Source: Acidimicrobiaceae bacterium
GTDB taxonomy: Bacteria > Actinomycetota > Acidimicrobiia > Acidimicrobiales > UBA8190
Length of the DNA: 64,000 nt
Assembly: GCA_003151475.1 (NCBI GenBank)
Contig: PLXQ01000018.1
Location: 1-64,000, forward strand
Direction: 5' to 3'
The translations under genes and the position numbers were made by a program. Positions 8,781 through 38,157 of this stretch are shown piece by piece. The stretch's first letter is position 1, and each line of letters begins with the position of its first letter. The notes beneath the pieces were generated by a model that saw only the letters and a program-made list of their open reading frames with translations, searched no databases and was not told where the DNA came from.

Positions 8781-11219
8781 ATGCGGAGACGCAGGCGGGG
8801 GACGGCACCGGACGGAGCCAGGGAAGACAACCTTGCCTGGGATCGGGCAGCGGTAAAGCCCCGAACGCTCGGTACCACTCTCCGCAGGCCGCTGTCCGTA
8901 ACGGTCGTCGTCTGGACGATATTGGCGGGTCTTGCGGGGCTGGGACCGTCGGGTACCACCACGGCCTCGGCGCTCTCGTTGACCCCGAATTGGCTGGAAC
9001 TGTCCCCGTCGACAAGCCCGCCAGGGCGGACTTCGGCGTCCATGGCCTATGACCCGGCGACCGGAGACACGGTGCTGTTCGGTGGGGCCGAGATCACGAG
9101 TGGCCCCGCCATCATGCTGTCCGACACCTGGACCTGGGATGGTTCGACCTGGACCGAGCAGTTTCCGTCCGCCAGCCCCCCTGCTCTGTACGGAGCCTCC
9201 CTCGCCTACGACGATGCCACGAACGACCTGGTCCTCTTTGGCGGTCTTTCCGACACCGGCGACATGTCCGAAACCTGGACTTGGAACGGAATCACATGGA
9301 CACAGCAGGTGTCGACTACCACTCCGCCCGTCCCGGTGCCGACGGCGCGTCACTCCGCCGCCATGGCCTACGACCACGTGGCAGGCCAACTGGTTCTGTT
9401 CGGAGGCCTGGATGGCCGGACGATTCTGAACGATACCTGGACATGGAACGGGACCACCTGGACACAGCAGCACCCCGCCACGAAGCCGACGGCACGTTAC
9501 GCCGCCTCCATGGCCTACGACCCAGCGATGGGAAACGCAGTGCTGTTCGGTGGCTATAGCGGCGGACAGACCGGCCTGTCAGACACGTGGACATGGAATG
9601 GAACAACCTGGTCACTGCAGAACCCGGCGATCATCCCCCCCGCTCGCTACGGAGCCTCGATGGCCTACGACCCCCTCCAAAGCGAAATCGTTCTTTTTGG
9701 CGGCTACGACAACGGTGCCAGCGACCTGTCGGATATGTGGACCTGGGATGGCACCAAGTGGGTACCGCGGTCGCCGACCACGAAACCCCCGGCTCGACGT
9801 TTTGCCGCCATGGACTACGACGCGGCGACGGCGAACCTGGTGCTTTTCGGGGGTGATCCGGGCGGTAGCGGCACTCCCGGTTCGCTGGACGACACCTGGA
9901 TTTGGGGATCCGGTGGCGCGTTCACTGATTCGGTCGCCCTCCCGAGCGTCATCCTCGGCGCTACCGACACCGCCACGGCCGCGGTGACCGGAGACGCCGG
10001 AGCTGCGGTCCCGACGGGCACCGTCAGGTTCTATGCCTGCGGCCCGACACCCACTCCGACGTCGTGTGAATCTCAAGCCAACCCTTTGGGCGCTCCGGTC
10101 AGCTTGAGTCCGATATCGAGCGATACCGCCGCAGCCATGTCGTCGGCTTTGAACCCGACGTCTACCGGCTATTGGTGCGTTGCCGCTGACTATTCGGGCG
10201 ACGCCAACTATGCCTTCGGTTCGGATACCACGACCGACGCGTGCTTCTTCGTAGAGCCACCGGTAGTCACCACACCTGCTGTGTCGACGGTCAGCCTCGG
10301 AAGTACCGACAACGACAATGCCACTGTGTTCGGAACGACGGCCGACGGTGCTCCGACGGGCACGGTCTCCTTCTACGATTGCGGTCCGACCGTCGTTCCG
10401 ACCTCCTGTACATCACAGACCAGCCCGGTCGGCGCACCGATCAGCCTGACGCCGGGACCAGGCGACACATCCACGGCGACGTCGCCCGGCTTTACCCCCA
10501 ACGCGCTCGGATATTGGTGCTTTGCCGGCGTGTATTCGGGTGACAGCAACTACGCGCCAGCATCCGACGCAACGACCGAAGAATGCATTCTCGTGACGGC
10601 CGTCTTTTCTTCTGTGTCCACCCTTTCCTCGATCAGTCTTGGGACCTCAGATACGGACGTGGCGACAGCGACCGGCAATGTCGGGTCAGCGACTCCTACG
10701 GGCACCGTCAGTTTCTACGAATGCGGGCCGAGTGCGACCCCTCTACCGTGTACATCAACGGTCAGCTCGATCGGCAGCCCGGTCACTCTGATACAGGGGC
10801 CAGCCAACACCGCCAAAGCGACGTCGCCCGCCTTTACCCCCAACGCAGTGGGCATCTGGTGCTTCGCTGCTGATTATTCTGGCGATGGCAACTACCCGCA
10901 AGGCTCTGACACCACCACCGACCAGTGTTTCAACGTGATTGACACTCTGCCGGCCTTTACGAGCGCCGGCTCGGCATCAGCCACTGCCAAACAGCCCTTC
11001 ACGTTCACCATCACAACGACCGGGTCGCCGACCGTGACAATCGTGAATTCTGGCGCCCGGAAGAAGTGGTTGGTGTTCGCCGACAATCACAACGGAACGG
11101 CCACGATAGATTCCAAAGCCGCGCGCACGGGCAAGCATGTGTTCACCTTCACGGCCACCAACGGTGCCGGTTCGGTCAACCAGACCTTCGTCCTTACGGT
11201 CCGTAAGGCAGGGGGATAG
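8781..11219 (+). CDS. Secreted Kelch-repeat protein with three tandem Ig-like repeats and a C-terminal He_PIG-like domain
   Basis: ATG 8781 preceded by GGGGGGAG; signal/TM LSVTVVVWTILAGLAGLG..ASA. Six Kelch blades (repeated DTWTWDG/NG..W, LFGG motifs). Three ~114-aa repeats each carry TGTVxFYxCGP...YWCFA..YSGDxNY. The C-terminal FTFTITTTGSPTVTIV...NGTATI...FTFTATNGAGSVNQTFVLTV resembles the putative Ig (He_PIG) domain. Confidence 0.8.
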   Translation: MRRRRRGTAPDGAREDNLAWDRAAVKPRTLGTTLRRPLSVTVVVWTILAGLAGLGPSGTTTASALSLTPNWLELSPSTSPPGRTSASMAYDPATGDTVLFGGAEITSGPAIMLSDTWTWDGSTWTEQFPSASPPALYGASLAYDDATNDLVLFGGLSDTGDMSETWTWNGITWTQQVSTTTPPVPVPTARHSAAMAYDHVAGQLVLFGGLDGRTILNDTWTWNGTTWTQQHPATKPTARYAASMAYDPAMGNAVLFGGYSGGQTGLSDTWTWNGTTWSLQNPAIIPPARYGASMAYDPLQSEIVLFGGYDNGASDLSDMWTWDGTKWVPRSPTTKPPARRFAAMDYDAATANLVLFGGDPGGSGTPGSLDDTWIWGSGGAFTDSVALPSVILGATDTATAAVTGDAGAAVPTGTVRFYACGPTPTPTSCESQANPLGAPVSLSPISSDTAAAMSSALNPTSTGYWCVAADYSGDANYAFGSDTTTDACFFVEPPVVTTPAVSTVSLGSTDNDNATVFGTTADGAPTGTVSFYDCGPTVVPTSCTSQTSPVGAPISLTPGPGDTSTATSPGFTPNALGYWCFAGVYSGDSNYAPASDATTEECILVTAVFSSVSTLSSISLGTSDTDVATATGNVGSATPTGTVSFYECGPSATPLPCTSTVSSIGSPVTLIQGPANTAKATSPAFTPNAVGIWCFAADYSGDGNYPQGSDTTTDQCFNVIDTLPAFTSAGSASATAKQPFTFTITTTGSPTVTIVNSGARKKWLVFADNHNGTATIDSKAARTGKHVFTFTATNGAGSVNQTFVLTVRKAGG
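9940..10965 (+). repeat. Three tandem ~342-bp coding repeats (Ig-like domain repeats) inside the Kelch protein gene
   Basis: Repeated protein blocks ...TGTVRFYACGP..., ...TGTVSFYDCGP..., ...TGTVSFYECGP..., each ending in YSGDxNY...SDxTTDxC. The nucleotide similarity is visible, e.g. recurring ctattggtgc / tattcgggcgac segments. Confidence 0.7.
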
Positions 11220-11384
11220 CTCGTCCCCGGTCGACATGATTGAGGCGAACGAGAGGTGCCACCGATCCGAGAGGCGTGGGCGCTGGTGGACGGCAATCCC
11301 TGAGGGGCCGGACGGCCTACGATCTCTGGTCGTAGACTTGCTTGCGGCCGCCGAACGAGAACGTTCGTGGCCAAGGAGGCGACC

Positions 11385-12164
11385 ATGTCGATCACTGCGG
11401 AGGACCGGACCAAGCAGCTGCCGATGCCCCCGACCTTTGCCACCTTCGAGGAGGAGCGGCGGCACCGCAAGGAACGCCTTGCTGCCGGCTTCCGGCTCTT
11501 CTCGAAGTTCGGTTTCGACGAAGGTGTGGCCGGCCACATCACCGCCCGTGACCCCGAGGACCCCGAGCTCTTCTGGGTGAACCCCTTCGCCGTCCACTTC
11601 GGCCATATCTCGGTCTCAGACCTCCTCTGCGTCAATGCCCAAGGCGAGGTGGTCGAAGGCAATCGCCCCGTGAACGTCGCCGCCTTCGCCATTCACTCCC
11701 AGGTCCACGCGGCCCGGCCCGACGTGACGGCGGCCGCCCACTCACACTCCGTCTACGGCAAGTCGTGGTCCGCTTTGGGCCGGACCCTCGATCCCATCAC
11801 GCAAGACGTCTGCGCCTTCTACGAGGACCATGACCTGTTCGACGACTACACCGGGGTAGTGGTCAACACCGAGGAGGGAAAGCGCATCGGCGCCGCCCTC
11901 GGTACGAACAAGGCCGTCATCTTGCGCAACCACGGACTGCTCACCGTGGGCGAGACGGTGGATGAGGCCGTGTGGTGGTTCATCACCATGGAGCGTTCCT
12001 GCCAGGCCCAGCTCTTGGCCGAGGCGGCCGGGACGCCGGTGCTCATCGACAAGGAGGTGGCGGCGCTCACCCACAGCCAGGTGGGGAACCACTACAGCGG
12101 CTGGCTCAGCTTCCAACCCCTCTACAACCGCGTCGTGCGGGAGCAACCCGACCTTCTCGACTGA
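11385..12164 (+). CDS. Class II aldolase/adducin family protein
   Basis: Metal-binding HxH context (AAAHSHSVYGKSW) and overall class II aldolase layout. ATG 11385 is preceded by AAGGAGG. Confidence 0.85.
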   Translation: MSITAEDRTKQLPMPPTFATFEEERRHRKERLAAGFRLFSKFGFDEGVAGHITARDPEDPELFWVNPFAVHFGHISVSDLLCVNAQGEVVEGNRPVNVAAFAIHSQVHAARPDVTAAAHSHSVYGKSWSALGRTLDPITQDVCAFYEDHDLFDDYTGVVVNTEEGKRIGAALGTNKAVILRNHGLLTVGETVDEAVWWFITMERSCQAQLLAEAAGTPVLIDKEVAALTHSQVGNHYSGWLSFQPLYNRVVREQPDLLD

Positions 12165-12212
12165 TCCTTTGCAGGCGCTTGGCGTCCGCACCCATCCTGA
12201 GAGGACATCACC

Positions 12213-13388
12213 GTGGACCGGCCGCTTACCTTCGGCGCCTTCATCGCCCCCTTCCATCCCGTCGGGCAGAACCCGACGCTGGCCATCGAGCGCGACCTCG
12301 AGCTCGTCGTCCGCATGGACCAGTTGGGCTTCCACGAGGCCTGGATCGGCGAGCACCACTCGGCCGGCTACGAGATCATCGCCTCTCCCGAGGTGGCCAT
12401 CGCCGTTCTCTCCCAGCGCACGAACAACATCCGCCTGGGGACCGGGGTGAGCTCACTGCCGTACCATCAGCCGCTCATCTTGGCCGACCGCATGGTGCTG
12501 CTCGACCACATCACCCGGGGCCGGATCATGTTCGGTGTCGGACCCGGGGCCTTGCCGTCCGACGCCTTCATGATGGGCATCGACCCCGCCGACCAGCGCG
12601 CCCGCATGGAGGAGTCCCTCGAAGCCATCCTGGCGCTGCTCGACGGCTCCGAGCTGGTGACCCGGAAGTCCGACTGGTTCACCTTGAAAGACGCCCGGCT
12701 GCAACTGCGGCCCTATACCCACCCCCGTTTCGAGGTGGCCGTGGCGGCTCAGGTGTCACCGGCCGGTCCGAGAGCGGCGGGCCGCTTCGGCCTGTCGCTT
12801 CTCTCCATCGGCGCTACCACCGCCGGGGGCTTCGACATCCTCGGCTCGCACTGGCTGACCATGGAGGAGCGGGCGGCCGAGTTCGGTACCACCGTGGATC
12901 GCGCCAAATGGCGGCTGGTGGGTCCCATGCACATCGCCGAGACCGAGGCCCAGGCGCGCAAGGACGTCGCCTTCGGGCTGGCCCAGTGGGTCGACTATTT
13001 CGAACGCGTGGCCGCTCTTCCCCTGGCGCCGGCCACCCTCGACCCCGACAAGCTGGTCGATGCCCTCATGGAGACGGGTTTCGCCGTCGTCGGTACCCCG
13101 GAGATGGCCGTGGCCCAGATCAAGCGCCTGGTCGAGCAGTCGGGCGGCTTCGGCACCTTCCTCCTCATGGCCCACGAATGGGCCGACCGGGAGGCGACGC
13201 TTCATTCCTACGAGCTCTTCGCCCGCGAAGTGATGCCCCACTTCCAGGGCACCCTGCCTTCGCTCGTCGGATCGCGCGACTGGGCGGCGGAGAACCGGCC
13301 CGAGTTCATCGGTGCCGTCGGTGGCGCCATCATGCAGGCCATCACAGACCACGCCGCGGAGCGCGAGGCCAAACAAAAGACGACCTGA
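12213..13388 (+). CDS. LLM-class flavin-dependent oxidoreductase (luciferase-like monooxygenase)
   Basis: TIM-barrel LLM motifs (GFHEAWIGEHH, GRIMFGVGPGA). GTG start preceded by GAGAGGA. Confidence 0.85.
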   Translation: MDRPLTFGAFIAPFHPVGQNPTLAIERDLELVVRMDQLGFHEAWIGEHHSAGYEIIASPEVAIAVLSQRTNNIRLGTGVSSLPYHQPLILADRMVLLDHITRGRIMFGVGPGALPSDAFMMGIDPADQRARMEESLEAILALLDGSELVTRKSDWFTLKDARLQLRPYTHPRFEVAVAAQVSPAGPRAAGRFGLSLLSIGATTAGGFDILGSHWLTMEERAAEFGTTVDRAKWRLVGPMHIAETEAQARKDVAFGLAQWVDYFERVAALPLAPATLDPDKLVDALMETGFAVVGTPEMAVAQIKRLVEQSGGFGTFLLMAHEWADREATLHSYELFAREVMPHFQGTLPSLVGSRDWAAENRPEFIGAVGGAIMQAITDHAAEREAKQKTT

Positions 13389-13407
13389 CGGTGGATTGCG
13401 GGCGCTG

Positions 13408-14967
13408 TCAGCTGCCGACGTCGCGCCGGGCGTCGAAAGTGGGAACGAGGGTCCGTGCCGCGCGGGCTTCGTCCACGCGGCGCACGGGAGTGGCGTGTGG
13501 CGCCTCGGCGGCGTACTGGGCTCCACCGGGCTCCACCGCCTCGGCGGCGATCTTCTCGAGGGCGGTGGCCAGAGCTTCGAGGGTCTGCAGGCTTTCCGTC
13601 TCGGTCGGCTCGAGCATCAGGGCCTCGTCCACGATCAGCGGGAAGTAGACGGTCGGCGAGTGAAACCCCTCTTCGAGCAGCCGCTTGGCCACATCAAGCG
13701 CTCTCACCCCGGTCGACTTCTTGAGCGAGGAGGCCGACAGCACACATTCGTGCATGCAGGGCCGGTCGTAGGGGACGTCGTAGGTCCCCGACAGCCGGGT
13801 CCGCAGCCAGTTGGCGTTCAGCACCGCCAGTTGCGCCACCTGCTTCAGCCCGTCGCCCCCGTGGACGAGCAGATAGGTGAGAGCCCGAGCCAGCACCAAA
13901 GCGTTTCCGTGCCACGAATGGACACGTCCGATCGACTCCGGCGTCGTGCTCCAGCCGTAGCGGTCCCCGGCTCCGTCGGCCAGACGCGTGGGCCGCGGCC
14001 CCGGCAAGTATGGCACCAGGCGTTGCGACACGGCCACCGGTCCGGCTCCCGGACCACCCCCGCCGTGCGGGGTGGCAAACGTCTTGTGCAAGTTCAGGTG
14101 CACGATGTCGAAACCCATGTCTCCGGGGCGTACCACGCCGACGATGGCGTTCAGATTGGCGCCGTCGTAATAGAGAAGGCCACCCACCTCGTGCACGGCG
14201 GCGGCGATGGCCACGATGTCCTCTTCGAACAACCCGAGTGTGTTGGGGTTGGTCAGCATGATCCCGGCCACGTCCTCGTCGAGCACGGCCCGCAGGGCGT
14301 CAAGATCGACACAGCCCCGGGCGTCGCTCGGGACGGTGACCACCTCATAGCCACCGAGGGTCACCGACGCCGGGTTGGTGCCGTGGGCCGAATCGGGGAT
14401 CACGACTTTGTGTCGCGTCTGGCCGTGCGCATCGTGCCAGGCCCGCATCAGCAGCAGCCCTGTCAGCTCCCCTGCGGCACCTGCCGCCGGTTGCAAGGTG
14501 GCCGCCGCCATTCCCGTGATCTCGCACAGCTGTTGCTCGAGCTCGACCAGCAGCTGCAGCCATCCCTGGGTGCAAGACGCCGGCGCGCCGGGGTGCACGT
14601 CCGCCAGTCCCGGCAAGACGGCCACGGCGTCACAGATCTTGGGGTTGTACTTCATGGTGCACGACCCGAGCGGATAAGCGCCGAGGTCGACCGAGAACTG
14701 CCGGTGGCTCAGACGGGTGAAGTGGCCCACCAGGTCGCGCTCGGACACCTCGGCCAGCCCCGGCGGTGCGGGGCGGCGGTGCTCGGCGGGGACGAGGTCC
14801 TCGAGGGAGACCTCGGGAACTCCCGTCGTCCGTAGTTGCCACGAGCGGCGGCCGGGCTGCGAGAGCTCGAACAGCGTGGGCTCCGCGTCACGCCCCATGA
14901 GCGGCGCGCTCAACGCCCGTCCGCCGGCGGCCGGCTCCGGCATCACATCGGTGACCACATCGGTCAT
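13408..14967 (-). CDS. gcvPB: Glycine dehydrogenase (decarboxylating) subunit 2, GcvPB (PLP-binding)
   Basis: PLP-lysine context HLNLHKTFATPHGGGGPG. Start at ATG 14967 forms an ATGA overlap with the gcvPA stop. The 107-aa upstream extension in ORF 13408..15288 is the alternate frame of gcvPA and was rejected. Confidence 0.9.
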   Translation of the reverse strand: MTDVVTDVMPEPAAGGRALSAPLMGRDAEPTLFELSQPGRRSWQLRTTGVPEVSLEDLVPAEHRRPAPPGLAEVSERDLVGHFTRLSHRQFSVDLGAYPLGSCTMKYNPKICDAVAVLPGLADVHPGAPASCTQGWLQLLVELEQQLCEITGMAAATLQPAAGAAGELTGLLLMRAWHDAHGQTRHKVVIPDSAHGTNPASVTLGGYEVVTVPSDARGCVDLDALRAVLDEDVAGIMLTNPNTLGLFEEDIVAIAAAVHEVGGLLYYDGANLNAIVGVVRPGDMGFDIVHLNLHKTFATPHGGGGPGAGPVAVSQRLVPYLPGPRPTRLADGAGDRYGWSTTPESIGRVHSWHGNALVLARALTYLLVHGGDGLKQVAQLAVLNANWLRTRLSGTYDVPYDRPCMHECVLSASSLKKSTGVRALDVAKRLLEEGFHSPTVYFPLIVDEALMLEPTETESLQTLEALATALEKIAAEAVEPGGAQYAAEAPHATPVRRVDEARAARTLVPTFDARRDVGS

Positions 14968-16316
14968 CAGCGCACCGCCTTGGCCATGGCGTCGACGAAG
15001 GCGTCGATCTCGGTTCGGGTCCGTCTCTCGGTCACGGCTACGAGCAACCCGTCGTCCGCACCCGAGCTGTAGCTCCCGTCGAGGGCGATCCCGGCCAGGA
15101 ATCCTTCGTCCACCAGCCGCTCGATGACCACGGGGGCCGGCAACGGCAGGCGGACGGCGAATTCCCGCAGCACGGCGGCGTCGGCCAACGCTTCGATGCC
15201 GGGAATGCCCAGCAGCTTCTCCCGGCAGTAGCGCGTGCCGCGGGCGGAACGCAGCGCCACCTCGGCGATGCCCGTCGTCCCCAACCACCCCAGTTGGATG
15301 GCGGCCGTCACCGCCATCAGCGTCTGGTTGGTGCAGACGTTGGACGTCGCCTTGTGGCGCCTGATGTCCTGCTCACGGGCGCGCAGGGTGGTCACATAGG
15401 CCCGGCGTCCCTCGGCGTCCACCGTCTCGCCCACCAGCCGGCCCGGCAGCCGCCGGACCTGGGAGAGGCCACAGGCGAAGAGCCCCAGATAGGGCCCGCC
15501 GAAGCCGAGGGGCATGCCGAGCGCCTGGCCCTCCCCCACCACCACGTCGGCGCCCCAGTCGCTCGGCGGTCGCAGGACGCCGGCGGCGATGGGATCGAAC
15601 GCCACCACCAACATGGCCCCCGTCCGGTCACAGACGGCGCGCGCCGCCGCCAGGTCCTCCAGACAGCCGAGGTAGTTGGGGTAGGCCACGAGCACCACGC
15701 CGGGGGCTTCCCCATCGGCGTCGGCGCCCTCCCACTGGGTGGTGCCGTTGGTCAGAGCGACATCGACCAGGCGGTGACCGGTCCCGGCGCTGAAGGTGGC
15801 GAGCACCTGGCGCCACGTCGGGTTGAGCCCGCGCGAGACCCACACCGTCTGTCGTCCCGTGGCCGCCACCGCCAGGTTCACGGCCTCGACGGTGGCGGCG
15901 GCCCCGTCGTAGAGCGAGGCGTTGGCCACCTCCATCCCCGTGAGCCGGGCCACCAGGGTCTGGAACTCGAAGACGGCCTGCAGCACGCCCTGGGCCACCT
16001 CGGGTTGATACGGCGTGTACGAGGTCACGAACTCCGAGCGCGAGGCGAGGGCCCGGGTCACCGGCGGCACCTCGTGGTCGTAGGCGCCGCCGCCGGCGAA
16101 GCAGACGAGATCGCGCCCGGCAGGACGGTTCGCTCGGGACAGGTCGTCGATGTAGGCGAAGGCGTCGGGCTCGGGCATTCCCTCAGGCAGGTCCAGACCG
16201 CCGGCCATGCGCAGTGCAGCGGGGACGACGGCAAAGAGGTCGTCGAGCGACGACAGCCCGAGGAACTCGAGCATGGCGGCCACCTCGGCCTCGGTGTGCG
16301 GGGCGTACCCGGACAT
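14967..16316 (-). CDS. gcvPA: Glycine dehydrogenase (decarboxylating) subunit 1, GcvPA
   Basis: Conserved GcvPA N-terminal region (YTPYQPEVAQGVLQAVFEFQT). ATGA overlap with the gcvT stop at 16316. Confidence 0.9.
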   Translation of the reverse strand: MSGYAPHTEAEVAAMLEFLGLSSLDDLFAVVPAALRMAGGLDLPEGMPEPDAFAYIDDLSRANRPAGRDLVCFAGGGAYDHEVPPVTRALASRSEFVTSYTPYQPEVAQGVLQAVFEFQTLVARLTGMEVANASLYDGAAATVEAVNLAVAATGRQTVWVSRGLNPTWRQVLATFSAGTGHRLVDVALTNGTTQWEGADADGEAPGVVLVAYPNYLGCLEDLAAARAVCDRTGAMLVVAFDPIAAGVLRPPSDWGADVVVGEGQALGMPLGFGGPYLGLFACGLSQVRRLPGRLVGETVDAEGRRAYVTTLRAREQDIRRHKATSNVCTNQTLMAVTAAIQLGWLGTTGIAEVALRSARGTRYCREKLLGIPGIEALADAAVLREFAVRLPLPAPVVIERLVDEGFLAGIALDGSYSSGADDGLLVAVTERRTRTEIDAFVDAMAKAVR

Positions 16317-17470: not shown

Positions 17471-17480
17471 TCCTCCCAGC

Positions 17481-17813: not shown

Positions 17814-17850
17814 CGTCAGCAGGATCCCCTCCCCCGTCGCCACCCCACGG

Positions 17851-18396: not shown

Positions 18397-18797
18397 CTGG
18401 CTCCTCCTCCACCTCAGGTGCAGCTTCATCGTACTCGGCACCGGCTCACAACGCGGTAGTTACGGACCTGTCACCCGAGAAATTTCCGGGCGCCCGGACA
18501 GCTCGGGGGGACACCCCTGGAGGACCCCGCTCCGCGACGCCGAACGGCCGAAATTCGCAGTGTGGCCGGGGAGAAATGCTCCAATGGCCGACGCCGCGGC
18601 GGACCGACAAACAGCTTCGTGACCGGCCCGTGAATCGGTGCCCAGCGCTGGCCCTGACGTGCACCCTGACCTGCGGATCGTCTCCGAGTCAGGGCGCCTT
18701 TCAGCTAGCGCACTCCACCAACTCTCACCCTGAAGTAGAGGGTCACTAGTCGGGGAAGGGGACCCGGGAGAGGAGCGAGAGTGCCAGGATCGACACC

Positions 18798-19445
18798 ATG
18801 AGCACCGAGAAGAGAAGTTCCGCCGCCAGCGACGCTCCCCGGGTCGCCCTGCACCGGCGGGTCATCGAGTTCGACGCCTATGACGAGGGGGACGCTGTGT
18901 CCATCACCGGTCGACTCCGTGACGAACGTCCGTGGGCGAGGGGGACAGACAAGGTCGAGCACGTCCACGACATGGATCTGTCGCTGACGATACGCAAGGA
19001 CGACCTGACCATCACCGAAGCCACCGCCACCATGACCCTTTTTCCGCACACCGAATGTCCAAGCATCACCGACGCCTTCGGCGACCTCGTCGGACTGAGT
19101 GTGAGTCGCGGGTACACGCGCGCCGTGCAGGACCGGTTCGGCGGCGTACGCGGATGCACGCATCTCGAGCAACTGGCGCGCACCGTGGGTCCCGTGGTGA
19201 TCCAGGCCGTCACCTCGGCCCGGGCCCGCGACCGCGACTGGCAGAACCTCGACGTGGCCCCGTCGGATCGCCCCACTCTCTTTCCGCGCAACACCTGTCA
19301 TATCTGGGCCGACGGAGGAGTAGCCGAACAGAAGCTCGAAGCGGGATGGCGACCCGGTGAGCGGTCCGGTTATCCGGCGCCGCCTGTTCAAGTATTTCTC
19401 CGCCGGTCGACGTCCGGCTCGGGCTCGTCAGTCGACGCGCCGTAA
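18798..19445 (+). CDS. DUF2889-like protein
   Basis: Size and the CTHLEQL motif region resemble the DUF2889 family; assignment is from memory of the family pattern only. Confidence 0.5.
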   Translation: MSTEKRSSAASDAPRVALHRRVIEFDAYDEGDAVSITGRLRDERPWARGTDKVEHVHDMDLSLTIRKDDLTITEATATMTLFPHTECPSITDAFGDLVGLSVSRGYTRAVQDRFGGVRGCTHLEQLARTVGPVVIQAVTSARARDRDWQNLDVAPSDRPTLFPRNTCHIWADGGVAEQKLEAGWRPGERSGYPAPPVQVFLRRSTSGSGSSVDAP

Positions 19446-19970
19446 CTCCGCCCGGTAGCGCCGGCCGTTCTTGATGTACTCGCCGGCCGCCAGGCGAATG
19501 CCGTGGACGTGGGAGCGATCGGGCTTAATGACGACCGGGACACCGACAGCGAGCGCTCCGGGCGGGACCTGCACGCGATTGGGGACGACTCCCCCGGCCC
19601 CCACCGTGGCGCCGGTACCGACAACGGCGTGATGGAGGACGACCGAACCCGACCCCACCAAGCATCCGTCCTCCAAAATGCATCCCTCGAGATGGACCAG
19701 ATGACCCACCACGCATCCGTCGCCGATGACGGTGGGGAAGCCGGGGCCGGCATGGATGACGGTGCCGTCCTGAATGGAGGTGCGCGCCCCCACCGTGATG
19801 CGGCCGTAGTCACCGCGCAGCACCGCCCCGGGCCACACGGTGGCATCGGGTCCGAGGGTGACGTCGCCGATGATCACGGCGTCGGGGTGCACGAAGGCCT
19901 CGGGGTCGATGCTCGGGACCTGGTCACCGAGTGTGTAGATGGGCACGACCGATGACGCTACCGCCATCAC
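19428..19970 (-). CDS. Gamma-carbonic anhydrase family protein (left-handed beta-helix hexapeptide repeat; PaaY/YrdA-like)
   Basis: VHPDAVIIGDVTLGPDATVWPGAVLRGDYGRITVGARTSIQDGTVIH hexapeptide repeats. Convergent with the previous gene, overlapping by 18 nt. Confidence 0.85.
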   Translation of the reverse strand: MMAVASSVVPIYTLGDQVPSIDPEAFVHPDAVIIGDVTLGPDATVWPGAVLRGDYGRITVGARTSIQDGTVIHAGPGFPTVIGDGCVVGHLVHLEGCILEDGCLVGSGSVVLHHAVVGTGATVGAGGVVPNRVQVPPGALAVGVPVVIKPDRSHVHGIRLAAGEYIKNGRRYRAELRRVD

Positions 19971-20079
19971 CGATCACCTCCACCACGGCCGAGGGGTCGG
20001 GATCCGGGCCCGGGGCCACGGCTGCGCAGTGTGGACGGTGGATGTGGCACCGTGGCGGGCGGTAAGCGATACTCCGTCG

Positions 20080-20304
20080 ATGGACCTCGTAGTGGCCGTG
20101 ACCGTCGCGCAGAAGCGCCATATGCAGGAGATCGGGCTCGCCATCGCCGCCGTCGGTGGACTGGCCGTCGTTCTGTCTGGCGTATTCGGACTGCGATCGA
20201 TGAGCCGGGTAGCCGAGCGATCGACGATGGTCGTCGCCGGCGTCCTCATCGCCGCCGGATTCGTCGTCCAACTGTTGGCGTTGCACAGCGGCGGTAAGTA
20301 CTGA
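20080..20304 (+). CDS. Hypothetical small membrane protein (74 aa, two predicted TM helices)
   Basis: Internal Met of ORF 19939..20304 (MDLVVAVTVAQKRHMQEIGLAIAAVGGLAVVLSG...VVAGVLIAAGFVVQLLAL). No homology evidence. Confidence 0.3.
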   Translation: MDLVVAVTVAQKRHMQEIGLAIAAVGGLAVVLSGVFGLRSMSRVAERSTMVVAGVLIAAGFVVQLLALHSGGKY

Positions 20305-20644
20305 CTGGCGCCTAGGTCCCCCGAGAGACCACGTGATCGCCATGGCGGACCGATCGATGGGGGCGGTCGTCGATACCTGAACGCCTGAGACGCAGAACGT
20401 GGCCCATTATCTTCTCCGTGGGCTCCTTGTGCCTGAGCAACTCGCACTTCTTTGGCTTGGGCCGCCCCGGGGAGCGGCCGACAGTCCCGGTCGCGGCGGT
20501 GCCAGCACCTACGCGCAAGGGTCCATCGAAGAAGAAGAGCCGCAAGGGGGCGCGTACCAAGCAGAATGGCCGCCGCCGCTGAGGCCCGTCCGCTGATTTC
20601 TGTAGGTTGTCCGGATATTTGATGCAGGATCGAGGGGAAGCGCC

Positions 20645-21439
20645 ATGGCTCGCGTACTGATCACAGGGTGTTCGAGCGGCTTCGGCCGGGCGAGCGCCAC
20701 GGAGTTGAAGAAGAGGGGGTTCGAGGTGGTGGCCACGGCGCGCCGGCCGGAGACGCTCGAGAATCTCGATGTCAACGCCCGCCTCGCCCTTGACGTGACC
20801 GACGACGCCTCGGTGGCGGCCGCCGTGGCCGCAGCCGGCACCATCGACGTTCTCGTGAACAACGCCGGTGTGGGCGTGAACGGACCGGTGGAGCTCGTCC
20901 CCATGGCCGAGGTGCGCCGGCTGTTCGAGACCAACTTCTTCGGAGCGCTGCGGATGATGCAGGCCGTGCTACCCCAGATGCGCGCTCGCGGGGCCGGGAC
21001 GATCGTGAACGTCTCGTCGGTGTCGGGCAAGGTGGCCGCCCCGCTGTCCGGGTTCTACGCCGGGTCGAAATTCGCCCTGGAGGCCGTCTCCGAAGCCATG
21101 TATTACGAGATGGGCCATTTCGGCATTCGCACGGTGATCATCGAGCCGGGTTACTTCCAGACCAACATCTCAGAGTCGGGAGTTGGCTATGGCGTCGAGG
21201 GTCCTCCCTACGACGAGCTGTCGGAGGCCACGACACAGATGATGGCCAGTCTGGGGCGAGGGGCGGCTCCGGGACCGGAGGTGGTGGCCCTGGCCATCGC
21301 CGATGCCATCGAGTCCCCCGATGCCCCCTTGCGCATCCCGGTGGGGACCGACGCCGAGATGGTCCTCGGGGCGCGGGCGTCGATGGACGACGCCACCTTC
21401 GAGGCGACGATGCGTCAGGTGCTCAATCTGGACTGGTGA
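20645..21439 (+). CDS. SDR-family NAD(P)-dependent oxidoreductase
   Basis: TGCSSGFGRA (TGxxxGxG) cofactor motif and YAGSKFA (YxxxK) catalytic motif. Confidence 0.9.
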   Translation: MARVLITGCSSGFGRASATELKKRGFEVVATARRPETLENLDVNARLALDVTDDASVAAAVAAAGTIDVLVNNAGVGVNGPVELVPMAEVRRLFETNFFGALRMMQAVLPQMRARGAGTIVNVSSVSGKVAAPLSGFYAGSKFALEAVSEAMYYEMGHFGIRTVIIEPGYFQTNISESGVGYGVEGPPYDELSEATTQMMASLGRGAAPGPEVVALAIADAIESPDAPLRIPVGTDAEMVLGARASMDDATFEATMRQVLNLDW

Positions 21440-21493
21440 TCCCCGGCGCAGTCCCGTCATGGCGAACGGGCTCTGCAGGTCCAGAGGGTCGTC

Positions 21494-22387
21494 TCAGTGA
21501 CGAGGGTGCGAGGTGGACCGGTCGGCGGTGATGGTGCGCCTCCGGCGCGAGGTGACTGTGGCCAACGACCCCAGTACGAGCGCCAGGATCCCGATCAGCA
21601 CCAGAGGGCCGACGTTGAGGCCGGTGAAGGCGAGCTTAGGACTGCTCACCTTGACCACGGCGGGCGTGCTCTTGTGCGGTGCAGTCGAGGTCCCCGGCCC
21701 GGATGTCCCAGGACTGGTGGGCGACCCGCTCCCCGACCCGAGTCCTCCCGGAGGGCCCGATCCCCCGCTCAATGAACCGGCGGGGGCCTGGGCCACGACA
21801 TAAAAGGCGCCGACACCGGCCCCGCCGGCGGGGACGGTGACCGGCTCTGACGCGGTATTGCCACTCGTTTCCACGGTGGCTGCCCCGCCGCAAGCCACCA
21901 GCTCGAAGCCAGAGGGAGGCGTGGCCGTCGTGGTGTAGCTACCGGACGGCACCTGTGTCGGAGCCAGAGGGTTGGCTTGGGACGCGACGGTTTGCGGTCC
22001 GGTGGCTGCCAGGGTTCCGCCCGTTTGCTCGGTCGTCGTCTGGGCCCCCGCCGCACTGCACAAGAAGATGTCACCGGCGATGCTCTGGTGGACGGGGCCA
22101 CAACCGGGGACGGTGGCGCGTGCGCCGGAATAGTAGAAGCGCACTCCTCCCACGGGTAAGACAGAGACATCGGCCTGGAAGGCACAGTCAGAGGTAGCAG
22201 GCACGGCCACGGTCAGCATCCCCGAGGTGGCATTGGCCGAGCCCTCGAGCGTTCCGTGGGACCAGAGCCGGAGCGTCCAGGTGGACGTGCTCGGCGAGGG
22301 GATGGTGAAGGTGGTCTGGGTGGCGTTGATGGTCGGGGGCTTCGGAAGCGAGGCGAACGCCGGTGCGGAGAGCGCCAGCACGGCCAC
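21494..22387 (-). CDS. Cell-wall-anchored surface protein with C-terminal LAxTG sorting signal (class E sortase type)
   Basis: C-terminus KLAFTGLNVGPLVLIGILALVLGSLATVTSRRRR is motif-LAFTG plus hydrophobic span plus basic tail. Thr/Gly/Ser-rich stalk. GTG start leaves only a short signal (VAVLALSAPAFA); the upstream in-frame sequence HRNGRAALRLAGCASAA looks like a signal n-region but lacks a canonical start, so the true start is uncertain. Confidence 0.65.
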   Translation of the reverse strand: MAVLALSAPAFASLPKPPTINATQTTFTIPSPSTSTWTLRLWSHGTLEGSANATSGMLTVAVPATSDCAFQADVSVLPVGGVRFYYSGARATVPGCGPVHQSIAGDIFLCSAAGAQTTTEQTGGTLAATGPQTVASQANPLAPTQVPSGSYTTTATPPSGFELVACGGAATVETSGNTASEPVTVPAGGAGVGAFYVVAQAPAGSLSGGSGPPGGLGSGSGSPTSPGTSGPGTSTAPHKSTPAVVKVSSPKLAFTGLNVGPLVLIGILALVLGSLATVTSRRRRTITADRSTSHPRH

Positions 22388-22572
22388 AGCCGCGCTTGCG
22401 CATCCAGCCAGCCTCAGCGCCGCGCGCCCGTTCCTGTGTTGTCCGGTTGTTGTCGTAATACGACCGACGGTAGCGAGAATTGCCCTCCAAGTGGGGGATA
22501 TCTCTCTCGCCCCCTAGGCACGCGGGGCCCCGGATCGCCCCCGGGAGGGCCCGGCCCGAGGGGCGGTTCTCC

Positions 22573-23970
22573 CTATCCGAGCTCCTTCGGTTCGCTCGGC
22601 TTGGGGTCCTTCTGGCCGTTGCTCGTGACCTGTGCCGTGGCCTCGACGGCCGGCAGCTTGGCGGCGTCGATGGACTTCCGCAGGGCCTCGTAGATGGACA
22701 GACCTTGGCTGACCACGCCCGCCGCCACCTGGTTCACCCCTTCGGTGCCGTTCAGGATGGTGAGGTTCGATCCGGCGATCCCCTTGGCCGCCTCCGCCAC
22801 CAGGGTGGGCAGGGCGTCGATGAGCTTGTTGGCGGCGATCAAGGCCTGGTTGCCGTCGGCCAGTGAAGCGGCCCGGACGTTGATGGCCTCGGCTTCGGCC
22901 GCCGCCACCGTGCGCTGGGCGTAGGCGTCACCGTCGGCTTCGTGCTTCTTGGCCGTGGCGTCGGCGGCGGCCCGGGTCTTTTCGGCGTCGGCCGAGGCCT
23001 CGGCGATCATGCGCTGGCGGTTGGCTTCGGCCTCGGTGTTGAACTTGACCGTGTCGCGGTTGGCTTCGGCCAGGGTCCGCAGGCGGAAAGCTTCGGCTTC
23101 TGTCTCGGCCTTCACCTTGTCCCTGTTTCCGTCGGCCAGGGTCCGCGTCTTGTAGGCCTCGGCGTCCGCTGGGCGGCGGACGTCTGACTCGAGGCGTTTG
23201 TCGGTGAGCTGGGCGGCGCGCTCGGCGAGATGGGTCTGCTGCTCGATGACCTGCTGGGAGGCCTCGGCTTCGGCCAGGGGACCGGCCTGAGCCGCCTTGG
23301 CCTTGGCCTGCTCGGTTTCGGCCGTGAAGCCGGACTGCTTGATGGCGGTGTCGCGGACGTACTCGGCCTTGAGCGCGGCGGCCTCCTGCTCGCGCTGGGT
23401 GGCCTCCTGGTCCGCCTTGGCGGCGGCGATACGGGCCTGGCTGGCCACGGCGGCGGCGTGGGGGGCGGCGATGTTGTTGATGTAGCCGGTGGAGTCCTCG
23501 ATCTCTTGGATCTGGAGAGAGTCGACCACGATGCCCAGCTTCTCCATCTCGCCGTGGCTGCCGTCTTTCACCTCCGAGGCCAGACGGTCTCGCTCGCGGA
23601 TGATCTCCTCGACGGTGAGGCTGCCGATGATGGAGCGGAGGTGGCCGGCGAAGATGCGGCCCACCAACTCCTCCATCTGATCTTGCTCGGCCAGGAAGCG
23701 ACGCGCCGCGTTGGCGATGGAGACGGTGTCGTCACCGACCTTGAAGGCAGCGATGGCGCGGATGTGGAGGCGGATGCCCTGGGTCGTGATGCAGTCCTCG
23801 GCGATCTCGGACTCCTGGAGTGAGAGCGAGAGGAAGCGCGCCTTCTGCTTGATGGGAAGCACGAAACAGCCGTGACCGGTGACGATCCGGAATTGGGTGT
23901 CCTCAGCCTTGCGTCTCGATCCGGAGATGAGAAGTGCCTCGTTCGGTGCCGGAACATGCCAGAAGAACAT
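22573..23970 (-). CDS. Flotillin-family SPFH/band-7 domain protein (YqiK/FloA-like)
   Basis: N-terminal membrane hairpin, SPFH domain, then a long Ala/Glu-rich coiled coil (EAEAFRLRTLAEANRD... repeats), typical of bacterial flotillins. Confidence 0.9.
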   Translation of the reverse strand: MFFWHVPAPNEALLISGSRRKAEDTQFRIVTGHGCFVLPIKQKARFLSLSLQESEIAEDCITTQGIRLHIRAIAAFKVGDDTVSIANAARRFLAEQDQMEELVGRIFAGHLRSIIGSLTVEEIIRERDRLASEVKDGSHGEMEKLGIVVDSLQIQEIEDSTGYINNIAAPHAAAVASQARIAAAKADQEATQREQEAAALKAEYVRDTAIKQSGFTAETEQAKAKAAQAGPLAEAEASQQVIEQQTHLAERAAQLTDKRLESDVRRPADAEAYKTRTLADGNRDKVKAETEAEAFRLRTLAEANRDTVKFNTEAEANRQRMIAEASADAEKTRAAADATAKKHEADGDAYAQRTVAAAEAEAINVRAASLADGNQALIAANKLIDALPTLVAEAAKGIAGSNLTILNGTEGVNQVAAGVVSQGLSIYEALRKSIDAAKLPAVEATAQVTSNGQKDPKPSEPKELG

Positions 23971-24001
23971 CGAGGAATCCCCTCTTAGAGCCGTGGACCG
24001 G

Positions 24002-24247
24002 TCATGCCAGCGCCGTGACGGACACGGTCCGCCCGGTTAGGCACTCGACGACCACGACACGCGCATACTTGGCGATGGTTTCGTCCGAAAAGGCCGTATA
24101 GGCCTCGGTGCCGCCCCGGACAGGAAGGACGACCTCACCGGGACGGGTGGGGGCGATGGGAACGGTGACCTGGCCGACCGTGCCGATCAGGTCCTGGTTC
24201 AGTTCTTCCGCCACGCTCGTCCCTTCCGAATCCCTCGCTGCTTCCAA
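24002..24247 (-). CDS. NfeD-like C-terminal OB-fold domain protein (flotillin partner)
   Basis: 81-aa ORF immediately upstream of, and co-oriented with, the flotillin gene. GTVGQVTVPIAPTRPGEVVLPVRGGTEAYTAFSDETIAKYARVVVVE matches the NfeD/DUF107 beta-barrel pattern; the NfeD-flotillin operon pairing is well established. Confidence 0.6.
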   Translation of the reverse strand: MEAARDSEGTSVAEELNQDLIGTVGQVTVPIAPTRPGEVVLPVRGGTEAYTAFSDETIAKYARVVVVECLTGRTVSVTALA

Positions 24248-24380
24248 ATGTACTGCGGTCCGGAGAATTAATGTCCCGAGCAGGGAAATGTCGGCCGTGA
24301 TGTACCGAATCCTGCGCCGTGGGCGTCCCCCCGCCGGGGCGAGCTGACGGGCGCCGATCGAGTTGTCGACGCTCGAGGGG

Positions 24381-27158
24381 TCAGGCAGGATCGACGGTCA
24401 GGGTGAAGGCCTGGGTCACGATCTTCTTGGTGGTGCCCTTTGCGAATCTGGCCTCGATGGTGAGGGGGTAGGTACCGGCCTTCCTGGGCACGCCCGACAG
24501 GGTGGCCGTGCCGTCGCCGTTGTCCACGAAGCGGTGGTGCCGCGGCAGATCGCCCTTCTTGGTGATGGACAGGGCTCCGGTGGTCGTGATTGTGAAGGAG
24601 AAGCGTGTTCCAACGACGGCGGTGGCACCGTCAGCGCTCGTGATGGAGTCAGGAGCGGGTCCGACGGTAAAGCTCTGCCCGACCTGTGAAGCGGGGTCAT
24701 AGATCCCGCCGCCGGCCTGGTTGGCATTGATGACACAGGTCCCGGCGCCGATGAAGGTCACCGTCGACCCGGCCAGCGAACAGATCGAGACAGCCGAAGC
24801 ATCGATGCTCAGGCTGACGGGCAGACCCGATGAGGCGACGGCCGACGCCACGTACGGGGGCCCACCGACCGTGGCCGAGCTGGGAGCCGTCGAGCTGAAG
24901 GTGATGGTCTGCGCCGTGAGCACGGCGTCGACGGCACCGATATCGCACGGAGTGGGCCGGGCCACACCCCGTTGATCGGGGTTGGCACAGACCTCGGCGC
25001 TGGGGACAGAACCGATGGCCGGGCTTCCGGGCTCGAGAGCGATGGTCTCGGTGGGGCCGCCGTTGTTCTCGAGCCCTCTCGGGTCGAGACCGGCGGGAGA
25101 GTCGGGGAAATCGAGCAGGGCTTGGAGCTCGCAGGAGCCGTCGTCGACCAGATTCTCGCCGTGGTCGGAAATCGTCCCCGAGCAGTCTGTGCCGGAGACG
25201 GCGTTGGCCACGATGGTGGCCTGGAGGTTCAGCGTCCCGGCGATGTTCGTGATGTCCCCCCCGGTATTGCCGGACAGAGTGCTCGTGACCACCGTTGTGG
25301 TCGAGGAGCCGTCGTTCTCGAAACCCCCGCCGGCCGAGGCGGCGTTGCCGGCCAAAGTGCTCCCGCCGATGAGCATGGCGCCGCCGAAGGACTCGATCCC
25401 TCCGCCCCGGTTGGCGGCGCTGTTTCCCGACAGTGTGCTGCGGATCACCCAGAGGGTTCCGCCGCTAGCAATAGCGCCGCCATAGACGGTGGCGGTGTTG
25501 TCGGACAGGGTGCTGTTCTCGATCACCACGGTGCCCGGACTGGAGCCGTTCACGGCGCCGACGCTGAAGAGGGCGCCGCCCTGGTCGACGGCACTGTTGT
25601 CGGCGAGCACGCTGTCGGTCACCGTGGTGGTGGCGCCTGTCAGTGTGGCGATGGCGCCTCCCCCACCGTCGTTGGCCGCATTGTCCGTCATCGTGGTGTC
25701 GGTGACCGTCAAAGTGCCGGCGTTGGCGACTGCGCCTCCCGACGTCGTCGCCGTATTGCCCGACAGGGCGCTGGTGGTGATGGTGAGCGTGCCGTTGTTG
25801 AGCACGCCTCCGCCTTCATCGGCACTGCCATCCTCGATGGTGAGCCCCGATATCGAAGAGGTGACCCCCGATGCCACTACGAAGTCCTCGACGGCACCGC
25901 CACCGCTCACGGCCATGGCATCGGCTCCCGGACCGTCGATGGTCACGTTGGCAGTGATGTCGATGGGACTGAGCAGAGCGATCGTCGTACAGGGCGGGTC
26001 GAGAGCGAAGGCGATACCAACGGTGGAGACAGCGTTCGCCACCGCCTGGCGAAGCGAACCCGACCCGGAGTCGTTGCAGTTCGTCACCGTTTTCGTGGCC
26101 GTCTGGTACGCGCCGATGTCACAAGGAAGCGGGCGCTGGACGCCACGCTGGTCGGACGAGGAGCAGAGTTGCGGACTGTTGTCCGCCCCGATGGCCGCAC
26201 TTCCGGGTTCCAAGGCGATGGTCTGGGTCGGTCCTCCGTTGTTCTGGAGGCCGGACGGGTCGAGTCCGGAGGACGTGTGGGAGAGGTCGGTGTTGCTCGA
26301 AAAGGAGCACGTTCCGTCATCGTCAAGATTGTCGCCGTGGCTGGTGACACCCCCGGCACAGTCATGGCCCGTGGAGCTTTGAGCCATGACGGTACCGAAG
26401 AGGATGACATTGGCCGGCGAACTGTCGTTGTAGATGCCCCCCCCACTGCCGGTGCTGCTAGGTCCGCTGGCGACGTTTCCGGAGAAAGTGCTGTCGACGA
26501 CGCTCATGAAACCCGTACCGCCGTTGTAGATGCCGCCACCGAAGTCGGCGCTGTTGCCGGCGAAGGTGCTGGTGTCGATGGCCAGCTTTCCGTTGTTCGT
26601 GATTCCGGCGCCGGCACCGAGGGAGCTGTTGTTCGACAGATTGCTGTCGAACACACTTGTGGTGGCACCGTTCACTATGGCCCCGGAATTGTTGGTGGAA
26701 AGGGTACTGGCCGTGATCGTAAGGGTGCCGCTGTTGACAATGGCAGCGGCGTTATTGGCGTCTTCGATGGTGAGACCCGAGATGCCGACGGTGTCTCCGG
26801 TACCGATCTGAAAAATACCGGTGGCGTTGTGACCGCTCACCGCCAGGACGTTCGCACCCGGCCCCGTGATGGTGAGGTCGGTGGCAATAGTGATAGGTCC
26901 ACTCGTCAGCGTGATGGTCGAGCAGGACAGCGAAGAGTCAAAGGCAATGATGAAGCCGGACTCAGCACTGGCCACCGCGGCGCGGAGCGACCCGGAACCG
27001 GAATCCGCGCAGCTGGTGACTATCTCCGTTCCCGCCGCCGATACGGGCGCGGGGAGAGCGACAACGGAGAGGGCGGTGAAGGTGAGGATGCAAGCGGCGG
27101 CGGGGAACCGAAGCCACGACCTTGGATTGCGCTTCCGGACGTCGGCGCAAGTGCTCAT
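24381..27158 (-). CDS. Large secreted protein with two tandem CSLREA/parallel beta-helix/choice-of-anchor-Q modules, a Big-like domain and a C-terminal He_PIG-like domain
   Basis: Start trimmed to MSTCADVRKRNPRSWLRF..ALPAPVSA (signal peptide). Each module opens CADSGSGSLRAAVASA / CNDSGSGSLRQAVANA (CSLREA-type), runs through beta-helix GGGI/NN repeats and ends LQNNGGPTQTIALEPGSAAIGA...DQRGVQRPLPCDIGAYQ / LENNGGPTETIALEPGSPAIGS...DQRGVARPTPCDIGAVD (CoA-Q signature). The C-terminal FSFTITTTGALSI...DNGDGTATLSG..AGTYPLTIEA...QAFTLTV parallels the C-terminus of the Kelch protein at 8781..11219. Confidence 0.8.
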   Translation of the reverse strand: MSTCADVRKRNPRSWLRFPAAACILTFTALSVVALPAPVSAAGTEIVTSCADSGSGSLRAAVASAESGFIIAFDSSLSCSTITLTSGPITIATDLTITGPGANVLAVSGHNATGIFQIGTGDTVGISGLTIEDANNAAAIVNSGTLTITASTLSTNNSGAIVNGATTSVFDSNLSNNSSLGAGAGITNNGKLAIDTSTFAGNSADFGGGIYNGGTGFMSVVDSTFSGNVASGPSSTGSGGGIYNDSSPANVILFGTVMAQSSTGHDCAGGVTSHGDNLDDDGTCSFSSNTDLSHTSSGLDPSGLQNNGGPTQTIALEPGSAAIGADNSPQLCSSSDQRGVQRPLPCDIGAYQTATKTVTNCNDSGSGSLRQAVANAVSTVGIAFALDPPCTTIALLSPIDITANVTIDGPGADAMAVSGGGAVEDFVVASGVTSSISGLTIEDGSADEGGGVLNNGTLTITTSALSGNTATTSGGAVANAGTLTVTDTTMTDNAANDGGGGAIATLTGATTTVTDSVLADNSAVDQGGALFSVGAVNGSSPGTVVIENSTLSDNTATVYGGAIASGGTLWVIRSTLSGNSAANRGGGIESFGGAMLIGGSTLAGNAASAGGGFENDGSSTTTVVTSTLSGNTGGDITNIAGTLNLQATIVANAVSGTDCSGTISDHGENLVDDGSCELQALLDFPDSPAGLDPRGLENNGGPTETIALEPGSPAIGSVPSAEVCANPDQRGVARPTPCDIGAVDAVLTAQTITFSSTAPSSATVGGPPYVASAVASSGLPVSLSIDASAVSICSLAGSTVTFIGAGTCVINANQAGGGIYDPASQVGQSFTVGPAPDSITSADGATAVVGTRFSFTITTTGALSITKKGDLPRHHRFVDNGDGTATLSGVPRKAGTYPLTIEARFAKGTTKKIVTQAFTLTVDPA

Positions 27159-27228
27159 GGCCGTCCCCCCGGAATTCAGCAGTTTTCTCAATGGTAAGGG
27201 TTCACGGTGTTCCAGGACATCGTCGTAA

Positions 27229-29863: not shown

Positions 29864-29879
29864 ACGCTGCCAACTTCAG

Positions 29880-38143: not shown

Positions 38144-38157
38144 CCCCGCCGTCCCCG

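Follow-up and report, generated by a model that had tools for sequence, protein, structure and literature searches.

The 64,000-nucleotide stretch analysed here (contig PLXQ01000018.1, positions 1 to 64,000, of the Acidimicrobiaceae bacterium assembly GCA_003151475.1, order Acidimicrobiales, phylum Actinomycetota; hereafter the window) encodes two secreted proteins, a Kelch protein with immunoglobulin-like (Ig-like) repeats, termed Kelch-Ig, and a choice-of-anchor Q (CoA-Q) protein. We found that both terminate in one Ig-like beta-sandwich of the He_PIG type, about 90 amino acids (aa) long and specialised as a terminal, strongly basic domain. This domain is referred to below as the tail, and the part of the protein in front of it as the passenger. 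The two proteins, each defined from its open reading frame (ORF) and translation, and their tails are as follows.

Positions 8781..11219, plus strand: Kelch-Ig secreted protein, 812 aa plus stop, matching Pfam Kelch families (E = 6.5e-32) and Big_3_5.
Positions 10941..11216, plus strand: Kelch-type basic terminal He_PIG-like Ig domain, residues 721-812, charge +7, isoelectric point (pI) 11.2, predicted local distance difference test score (pLDDT) 89.9.
Positions 24381..27158, minus strand: secreted protein of 925 aa (plus stop) with two CSLREA / beta-helix / choice-of-anchor Q modules.
Positions 24384..24659, minus strand: CoA-Q-type basic terminal He_PIG-like Ig domain, residues 834-925, charge +5, pI 10.1, pLDDT 90.5.

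A preliminary description of this DNA had reported that the two proteins share a C-terminal Ig-like domain of roughly 70 aa. The homology was borne out, while the length had to be corrected to about 88-92 aa. Residues 721-812 of the Kelch-Ig protein aligned with residues 834-925 of the CoA-Q protein at 37% identity over 90 columns (pairwise E = 1e-11), and tblastn across the 64-kb window returned these two tail copies only (E = 3e-8). When a profile built from the relatives of one tail was compared with a profile built from the relatives of the other, the two aligned with 99.8% probability (E = 1.5e-28, 88 columns). Together, the pairwise, tblastn and profile-profile results excluded chance similarity and low complexity as the source of the likeness. 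The preliminary description had named a failure of the C-termini to align by profile methods as a finding that would speak against it, and that objection therefore falls away. It was also correct in stating that both proteins end directly behind the domain, as they stop 2-5 residues past the last strand (...TLTVDPA and ...LTVRKAGG, each followed by the stop codon).

The assignment to He_PIG was examined at the level of family and fold. PF05345 (He_PIG) was the best Pfam match of the CoA-Q tail at 21.9 bits, just under the gathering score of 24, and the Kelch-Ig tail reached 17.4 bits, also just below 24, ranking third after weak Big_13 and Cadherin_5 matches. Homology of both window tails to bona fide tandem He_PIG repeats was found with a hidden Markov model (HMM) of internal repeats and by pairwise identity: the CoA-Q tail scored 88.4 bits with a best identity of 54% to an internal repeat, and the Kelch-Ig tail 73.8 bits with 47%. 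Furthermore, 29 of 42 tail relatives matched PF05345 at E≤0.01 (best E = 1.2e-12), and most of the short database relatives of the tail had a precomputed PF05345 assignment. The tail is not covered by any NCBIfam model. In the region of the F-G hairpin, 9 of the 42 tails (alignment A4) weakly resembled TIGR03769 (P_ac_wall_RPT); these matches, with a best E of 4e-5, were well below that model's cut-off and were not treated as evidence. AlphaFold2 models, a check proposed in the preliminary description, predicted an Ig-like beta-sandwich of about 90 residues with seven to eight strands for both tails. The CoA-Q tail was modelled as a seven-strand sandwich, and the Kelch-Ig tail showed an Ig-like strand pattern with the same strand order. 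Foldseek neighbours were of modest significance (E~1e-3) and comprised SraP (4m02), the GH107 fucoidanases 6dns/6dms, BF1418 (4nzj) and alpha-dystroglycan, all of them Ig modules of cadherin-like or He_PIG-like type.

The He_PIG family is very large. Searching cluster representatives with the tail profile gave 13,922 matches at E≤1e-3 and 1,781 at E≤1e-30, and the best 150 representatives were all tandem arrays of 6-40 repeats. Since arrays dominated this search, the He_PIG family is mostly internal. The exhaustive search was saturated by giant tandem arrays, and it yielded the family size and an independent charge test but no set of proteins of the tail type. The tail HMM detected tandem He_PIG arrays at 50-85 bits per repeat. 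A search using just the short domain gave proteins no longer than 163 aa, most of them pieces of tandem arrays, and therefore says little on architecture. He_PIG and CoA-Q are both known families; the pattern described here is one of specialised basic terminal He_PIG copies.

By HMM comparison, both tails lie nearer to ordinary internal He_PIG repeats than to one another, and the two form separate subfamilies. Against the HMM of its own subfamily, with itself left out, the CoA-Q tail scored 120.2 bits and the Kelch-Ig tail 134.8 bits; against the HMM of the other tail's subfamily the scores were 52 and 75 bits, respectively. The 'same' He_PIG-type domain of the preliminary description thus holds for the family and not for the subfamily. 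A third terminal type is the canonical He_PIG, whose hairpin reads 'TKTKTKPHTQNTAT'; it stands at the end of P0124 (with a Pfam match), the closest two-module CoA-Q homologue, and of several arrays, and it is also basic by residue count. What these ends have in common, a basic terminal He_PIG, is thus an outcome that evolution reached repeatedly and not a single inherited cassette. We also observed that a canonical 'GG.PPY.W…LP.GL.L…G.LSG.P' terminal He_PIG closes other CoA-Q proteins, Big_3_5 proteins and some arrays (P0124, P0127, P0256 and P0258; L015, L023, L044 and L068); its last hairpin is rich in Lys (for example DTKTKTKPHTQNTAT), and by residue count such domains are strongly basic.

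The findings on family and fold are what one would expect if the tail were a structural end cap, produced by shuffling of He_PIG repeats and without an anchoring or recognition role, with a charge that offsets the acidic passenger or reflects an exposed inter-repeat face. He_PIG is very large, dominated by arrays and abundant in the lineage, each window tail is nearer to internal repeats than to the other tail, and the fold matches are generic Ig modules. The distribution of charge, which the preliminary description had not mentioned, points the other way.

The tails invert the charge of their surroundings, being strongly basic domains on very acidic passengers. Their mean charge was +5.8 (pI 9.9), and +5.3 in the CoA-Q homologues, compared with a mean of -2.6 (pI 4.8) for internal He_PIG repeats (n=560). 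The passengers of the two window proteins carry -54 and -41 (pI 4.05), or about -7 per 90 aa, and the tail is the sole clearly positive 90-aa segment in both proteins, the N-terminal signal region of the Kelch-Ig protein excepted. A column-by-column comparison of 44 CoA-Q-type and 18 Kelch-type sequences located the Lys/Arg gains common to both subfamilies in the C-C' loop (profile columns 39 and 42) and the E-F loop (columns 60-63). At column 36, Asp or Glu occupied 71% of internal repeats, whereas Lys or Arg occupied 64% of CoA-Q-type tails. Additional basic positions were found in the CoA-Q type in a Lys-rich F-G hairpin (columns 76, 78 and 80; FAKGTTKK in the window CoA-Q tail) and in the Kelch type at columns 17, 65, 67 and 92-93. 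From the usual Ig arrangement, the C-C' and E-F loops would lie at the C-terminal tip, where they would be buried against the next repeat in an array and free in a terminal domain.

A basic last repeat was also found in certain He_PIG arrays. Where the array ended at its last repeat, that repeat averaged +2.9, compared with means of -0.1 to -2.4 for the other repeats and about -2 further in; where sequence came after the last repeat, it averaged -1.8. In the 150 independent representatives the last repeat averaged +1.4 in array-ended proteins versus -2.7 in continued ones (Mann-Whitney p = 2e-7). Two observations argue against an end cap: the last repeat is basic only where nothing comes after it, and the Lys/Arg gains are tied to particular positions that are shared by two independent subfamilies and kept throughout the 44 and 18 sequences.

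Among 120 listed CoA-Q homologues, 33 carried a CoA-Q-type tail (≥85 bits) 0-15 aa from the C-terminus, mostly 0-3, and 18 Kelch-Ig orthologues all ended in a Kelch-type tail, 0-10 aa from the C-terminus. In a position-blind genome scan with one genome per species, all 11 of the 11 matches at ≥95 bits were single copies lying 0-9 aa before the stop codon, and all came from Acidimicrobiales or Acidimicrobiaceae; genome matches scoring 50-85 bits belonged to tandem arrays and were spread over many phyla. The preliminary description had counted it against its own idea if the domain should prove mainly internal elsewhere. That is true of the broad He_PIG family with its internal arrays, but the tail subtypes are single and terminal. 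Including the window Kelch, at least six passenger types bear such tails in Acidimicrobiales genomes, and the others, all with a CoA-Q-type tail, are as follows.

L040 and L057: CoA-Q beta-helices.
L011: a YvrE/streptogramin-lyase-like propeller.
L008-L010 and L019: a Cys-rich domain, a Thr linker and two Big_3_5-like repeats.
L007 and L082: multi-Ig proteins, the passenger list including four Big_3_5 repeats.
L018: a repeat protein.

Big_3_5-like repeats as in the Kelch-Ig protein also stand before the tail in L007-L010, L019 and L082, and the layout of a Big_3_5 stalk plus tail recurs in several proteins with a CoA-Q-type tail. These distributions support the view that, in this lineage, secreted proteins with little else in common repeatedly carry the tail as a module at their extreme C-terminus. 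Its retention on at least six unrelated passenger types is a further point against the end cap, which we consider rather unlikely on the whole.

Two other ORFs of the window were considered and set aside. The ORF at 176..2260 (plus strand), whose end '…GKTKKTFSVTL…' made it a candidate third tail, was ruled out, as this is the PDZ end of an HtrA-like protease, a protein that also has a Pro-rich N-terminal region. The ORF at 38038..41001 (plus strand), which ends in a hydrophobic helix and RRRRRR, encodes a large polytopic membrane protein with no relation to the tails.

We asked what other means of attachment the two proteins carry. Membership of the window protein in the CoA-Q family was clear: NF041518 (choice-of-anchor Q) matched it with 99.3 bits (E = 1e-28) in two stretches, compared with a curated cut-off of 25 bits. 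Together with CSLREA-like motifs at residues 50 and 361, this corroborated the tandem CSLREA/beta-helix/CoA-Q architecture given in the preliminary description, which was also right that the protein lacks a classical sorting signal. Neither window protein contains an L[PA]xTG motif or a C-terminal hydrophobic window or membrane segment, so both lack the classical combination of motif, hydrophobic helix and basic cluster at the C-terminus (LPXTG/LAXTG, PEP-CTERM and similar signals). The full proteins and the tails, the window tails being scanned to E≤10, gave no Pfam match to SLH, LysM, SH3b/GW, CWB1/2, WxL or SLAP. Outside this lineage, the C-termini of CoA-Q homologues consist of three SLH repeats (P0209, P0220), a dockerin (P0201), hydrophobic/basic tails or short tags.

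Of the 120 CoA-Q homologues listed, at least 11 (P0130, P0157, P0158, P0166, P0181, P0183, P0186, P0197, P0219, P0226 and P0231) ended in an ultra-short, hydrophobic [FY]LP[LIM][IV]x[RKQ]-COOH, for example LYLPLIMR, IYLPLVMR or LFLPLILR. It stands directly after the CoA-Q 'CDIGAYE' motif or another domain, with no transmembrane (TM) segment behind it, and looks like a distinct mini sorting tag. As for the arrays, He_PIG arrays of Jatrophihabitans, Frankiales and Pseudonocardiales end in LA[DN]TG, a TM segment and RRRR, a sortase-E-type signal, and those of Acidimicrobiia stop directly after the basic last repeat (L012, L017, L026, L029 and L055 compared with L013, L020, L025, L030, L037, L058 and L073).

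The remaining features of the two window proteins are listed here. Both signal regions and the Ig-like spacer were delimited by sequence inspection.

Positions 8781..8972, plus strand: N-terminal signal region of the Kelch-Ig protein, with an Arg-rich n-region, the hydrophobic core LSVTVVVWTILAGLAGLG and an ASA|LS site.
Positions 8991..9932, plus strand: Kelch beta-propeller passenger, with PF24681, PF13415 and PF24981 matches over residues ~99-374.
Positions 9936..10937, plus strand: three Cys-containing Big_3_5-like Ig repeats ending ...CFFV, ...CILV and ...CFNV, with Pfam Big_3_5 matching two stretches.
Positions 27036..27158, minus strand: signal peptide of the CoA-Q protein, …ALPAPVSA|AG.
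Positions 26103..27011, minus strand: module 1 of the CoA-Q protein, with the CSLREA-like motif at residue 50, a beta-helix and a CoA-Q domain ending DQRGVQRPLPCDIGAYQ.
Positions 24927..26078, minus strand: module 2 of the CoA-Q protein, with the CSLREA-like motif at residue 361, a beta-helix and a second CoA-Q domain ending DQRGVARPTPCDIGAVD.
Positions 24660..24914, minus strand: Cys-containing Ig-like spacer, TITFSS…C…C.INANQAGG…QSFTVG, giving no Pfam match.

Signal cleavage would occur at ASA|LS in the Kelch-Ig protein and at …ALPAPVSA|AG in the CoA-Q protein. The main hydrophobic stretch of the Kelch-Ig protein (Kyte-Doolittle value >1.6) is at residues 37-38, with one short internal window at about residue 602; that of the CoA-Q protein covers residues 16-24, with one short internal window at about residue 792. 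Gene callers differ on the start of the Kelch-Ig protein, which is 725 aa long in most database copies and 812 aa in one. The 725-aa call begins 87 codons later and loses the signal peptide (region 8781..9041); the 812-aa start therefore looks right for a secreted protein. The Ig-like spacer of the CoA-Q protein is found twice ahead of the stalk in L007.

No exact database match for either window protein was on record. The Kelch-Ig orthologues (P0241-P0264) showed 53-96% identity, and a relative of the CoA-Q protein, P0121, was 99% identical over 925 aa and present on 12 metagenome contigs, where its gene is flanked by housekeeping functions (glycine cleavage, LytB, Der GTPase, Band_7) with no sortase-like gene among the neighbours. 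For both window proteins the nearest named relatives came from Acidimicrobiales metagenome-assembled genomes. Divergent from the CoA-Q gene lies 27229..28074 (plus strand), kept beside it on 6 of 6 related contigs; its Cys-containing product of about 280 aa is without a Pfam match and ends in a pure Thr/Ser/Pro tract (…SSTTTTTSTTPPATTTSTSTPPTTTSTT, directly before the stop). The GC content of the window is high (0.61-0.74), with the lowest part (0.61) at ~28000..30820, beside tRNA-Pro(GGG) at 30741..30818. This part holds an ORF for an FkbM-type methyltransferase (29042..29863; Methyltransf_21 in related contigs) and may be a small island inserted at tRNA-Pro. A 741-aa ORF running antisense through the CoA-Q gene (24972..27197, plus strand) is rich in Arg, Gly and Asp and looks like a high-GC artefact, as do the other long antisense ORFs of the window.

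Based on the position and charge of the tails and on analogy with known modules, we propose that the tail is a non-covalent, charge-based envelope retention module, a tentative reading that we find plausible but would not yet call probable. Both proteins would be exported by Sec and their signal peptides removed. The acidic passenger (pI about 4) would then be held at the cell surface by the basic tail, binding non-covalently and largely through charge to an anionic constituent of the monoderm envelope, for example glycopolymers of the wall or lipids of the membrane. Thus the tail would fill, in Acidimicrobiales, the C-terminal 'anchor' slot used elsewhere for SLH repeats, LAXTG signals and other tags, and the two window tails, from separate subfamilies, would have come to one solution in parallel. 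We also considered a broader claim, that basic terminal He_PIG domains are a new class of non-covalent charge-based anchor and the usual display route in Acidimicrobiia, evolved at least twice from acidic He_PIG repeats and replacing sortase/LAXTG or SLH; this is possible but doubtful.

Several points weigh against envelope retention. The case for attachment was argued from position, charge and analogy, and C-terminal Ig-like domains are common on secreted proteins without an anchoring role. The clustering of basic residues on one face would follow from standard Ig topology. The charge effect was weaker in the 150 representatives, where the comparison of the last with the third-last repeat gave p = 0.02 (Wilcoxon), and in control homologues that lack the domain the last 90 aa averaged -0.7 (standard deviation 7.5), with about 20% of them at ≥+5. 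Judging from the subfamily and internal-repeat HMMs, no specific kinship links the two window tails. An all-against-all comparison of flanking ORFs found no conserved neighbour gene across 13 tail-bearing loci; the families that did recur were antisense ORFs and a luciferase-like monooxygenase (4 loci), taken as coincidence. No partner gene or sorting enzyme for the tails was found at these 13 loci or on the P0121 contigs, which also agrees with the end cap. The preliminary description had suggested a common attachment or partner-recognition module. What stands of this is a recurrent terminal module in the CoA-Q anchor slot; the window tails belong to two subfamilies, and the partner is missing from the loci compared.

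The same basic charge would suit a module that sits distally and binds anionic ligands away from the producer (acidic polysaccharides, extracellular DNA, mineral surfaces or other cells, for instance), acting like a carbohydrate-binding module or an adhesin tip without retaining the protein on its own envelope. Solved relatives of the tail include accessory Ig domains of glycoside hydrolases (6dns/6dms, 4nzj) and the adhesin SraP (4m02), and the beta-helix and propeller passengers look polysaccharide-active or polysaccharide-binding. However, once its signal peptide was cleaved the protein would be otherwise unattached, so that the module would serve a protein that is free to diffuse; the passengers are too varied for one substrate, and the correspondence in position to SLH repeats and LAXTG signals favours the envelope of the producer itself. 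On balance we think an external ligand rather unlikely. It is highly improbable that the tail serves as a folded tag read by a dedicated machine for sorting, secretion or processing, with later removal or covalent linkage, because, despite the alternative sorting signals that define CoA-Q proteins and the resemblance of a terminal Ig-like domain of about 90 aa on diverse cargo to the logic of the type IX secretion system (T9SS) C-terminal domain, only 1 of 42 tails touched TIGR04183 (E = 0.05), the 13 loci share no neighbour gene, the flanking genes are housekeeping ones and a Sec signal peptide should suffice for export in the generally monoderm Actinomycetota.

A terminal Ig domain is unsurprising by itself; here the sequence pattern is robust and the hypothesis clear. 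Acidimicrobiia abound in soils, peat and waters; most have not been cultured, and little of their surface biology has been charted. Should the tail be a retention module, a single C-terminal He_PIG-like domain with a net charge of about +5 would give a surface-proteome rule for the lineage, would explain how its choice-of-anchor proteins manage without a classical signal, and would bring an Ig fold into the set of wall-binding modules catalogued for Gram-positive bacteria. Otherwise, the pattern would represent ordinary domain shuffling with an unusual charge signature.

Finally, we compared the tails with known systems. They resemble the T9SS C-terminal domain (TIGR04183, Por_Secre_tail) in being Ig-like sandwiches (~80-100 aa in T9SS) at the extreme C-terminus of diverse cargo. 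T9SS belongs to Bacteroidota-type diderms, in contrast to the Actinomycetota lineage here; no associated machinery was seen at the tail loci, and with no TIGR04183 match for the window tail, membership of that sorting-domain family was not found. The likeness to SLH, the GW/SH3b modules of InlB, WxL, CWB2 and SLAP would be one of role, namely terminal, sortase-free envelope retention of varied passengers, and SLH repeats fill the corresponding C-terminal slot in the CoA-Q homologues P0209 and P0220. The tails have no sequence relationship to these wall-binding modules and differ from them in fold, being Ig sandwiches. A catalogue of Gram-positive non-covalent wall-binding modules (LysM, WxL, SH3b/GW, CWB1/2, SLH and others) omits He_PIG and speaks of Ig-like domains only in connection with pilins (PMC5817068); our literature search for a terminal He_PIG module found nothing. 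Compared with choice-of-anchor Q proteins bearing classical signals, the window protein is a genuine CoA-Q family member, with homologues that show the typical C-terminal variety of the family, but its C-terminus is a folded 90-aa basic Ig domain instead of a short motif, a TM segment and a basic cluster. The closest comparison is with He_PIG itself (PF05345, dystroglycan-type cadherin-like Ig), with which the tails share sequence family and fold. He_PIG domains typically occur as acidic repeats inside arrays of 4-40 copies, whereas the tails are single, basic and placed at the extreme C-terminus, and the CoA-Q type differs further from the usual He_PIG by a 4-residue Lys-rich insertion in the F-G hairpin.

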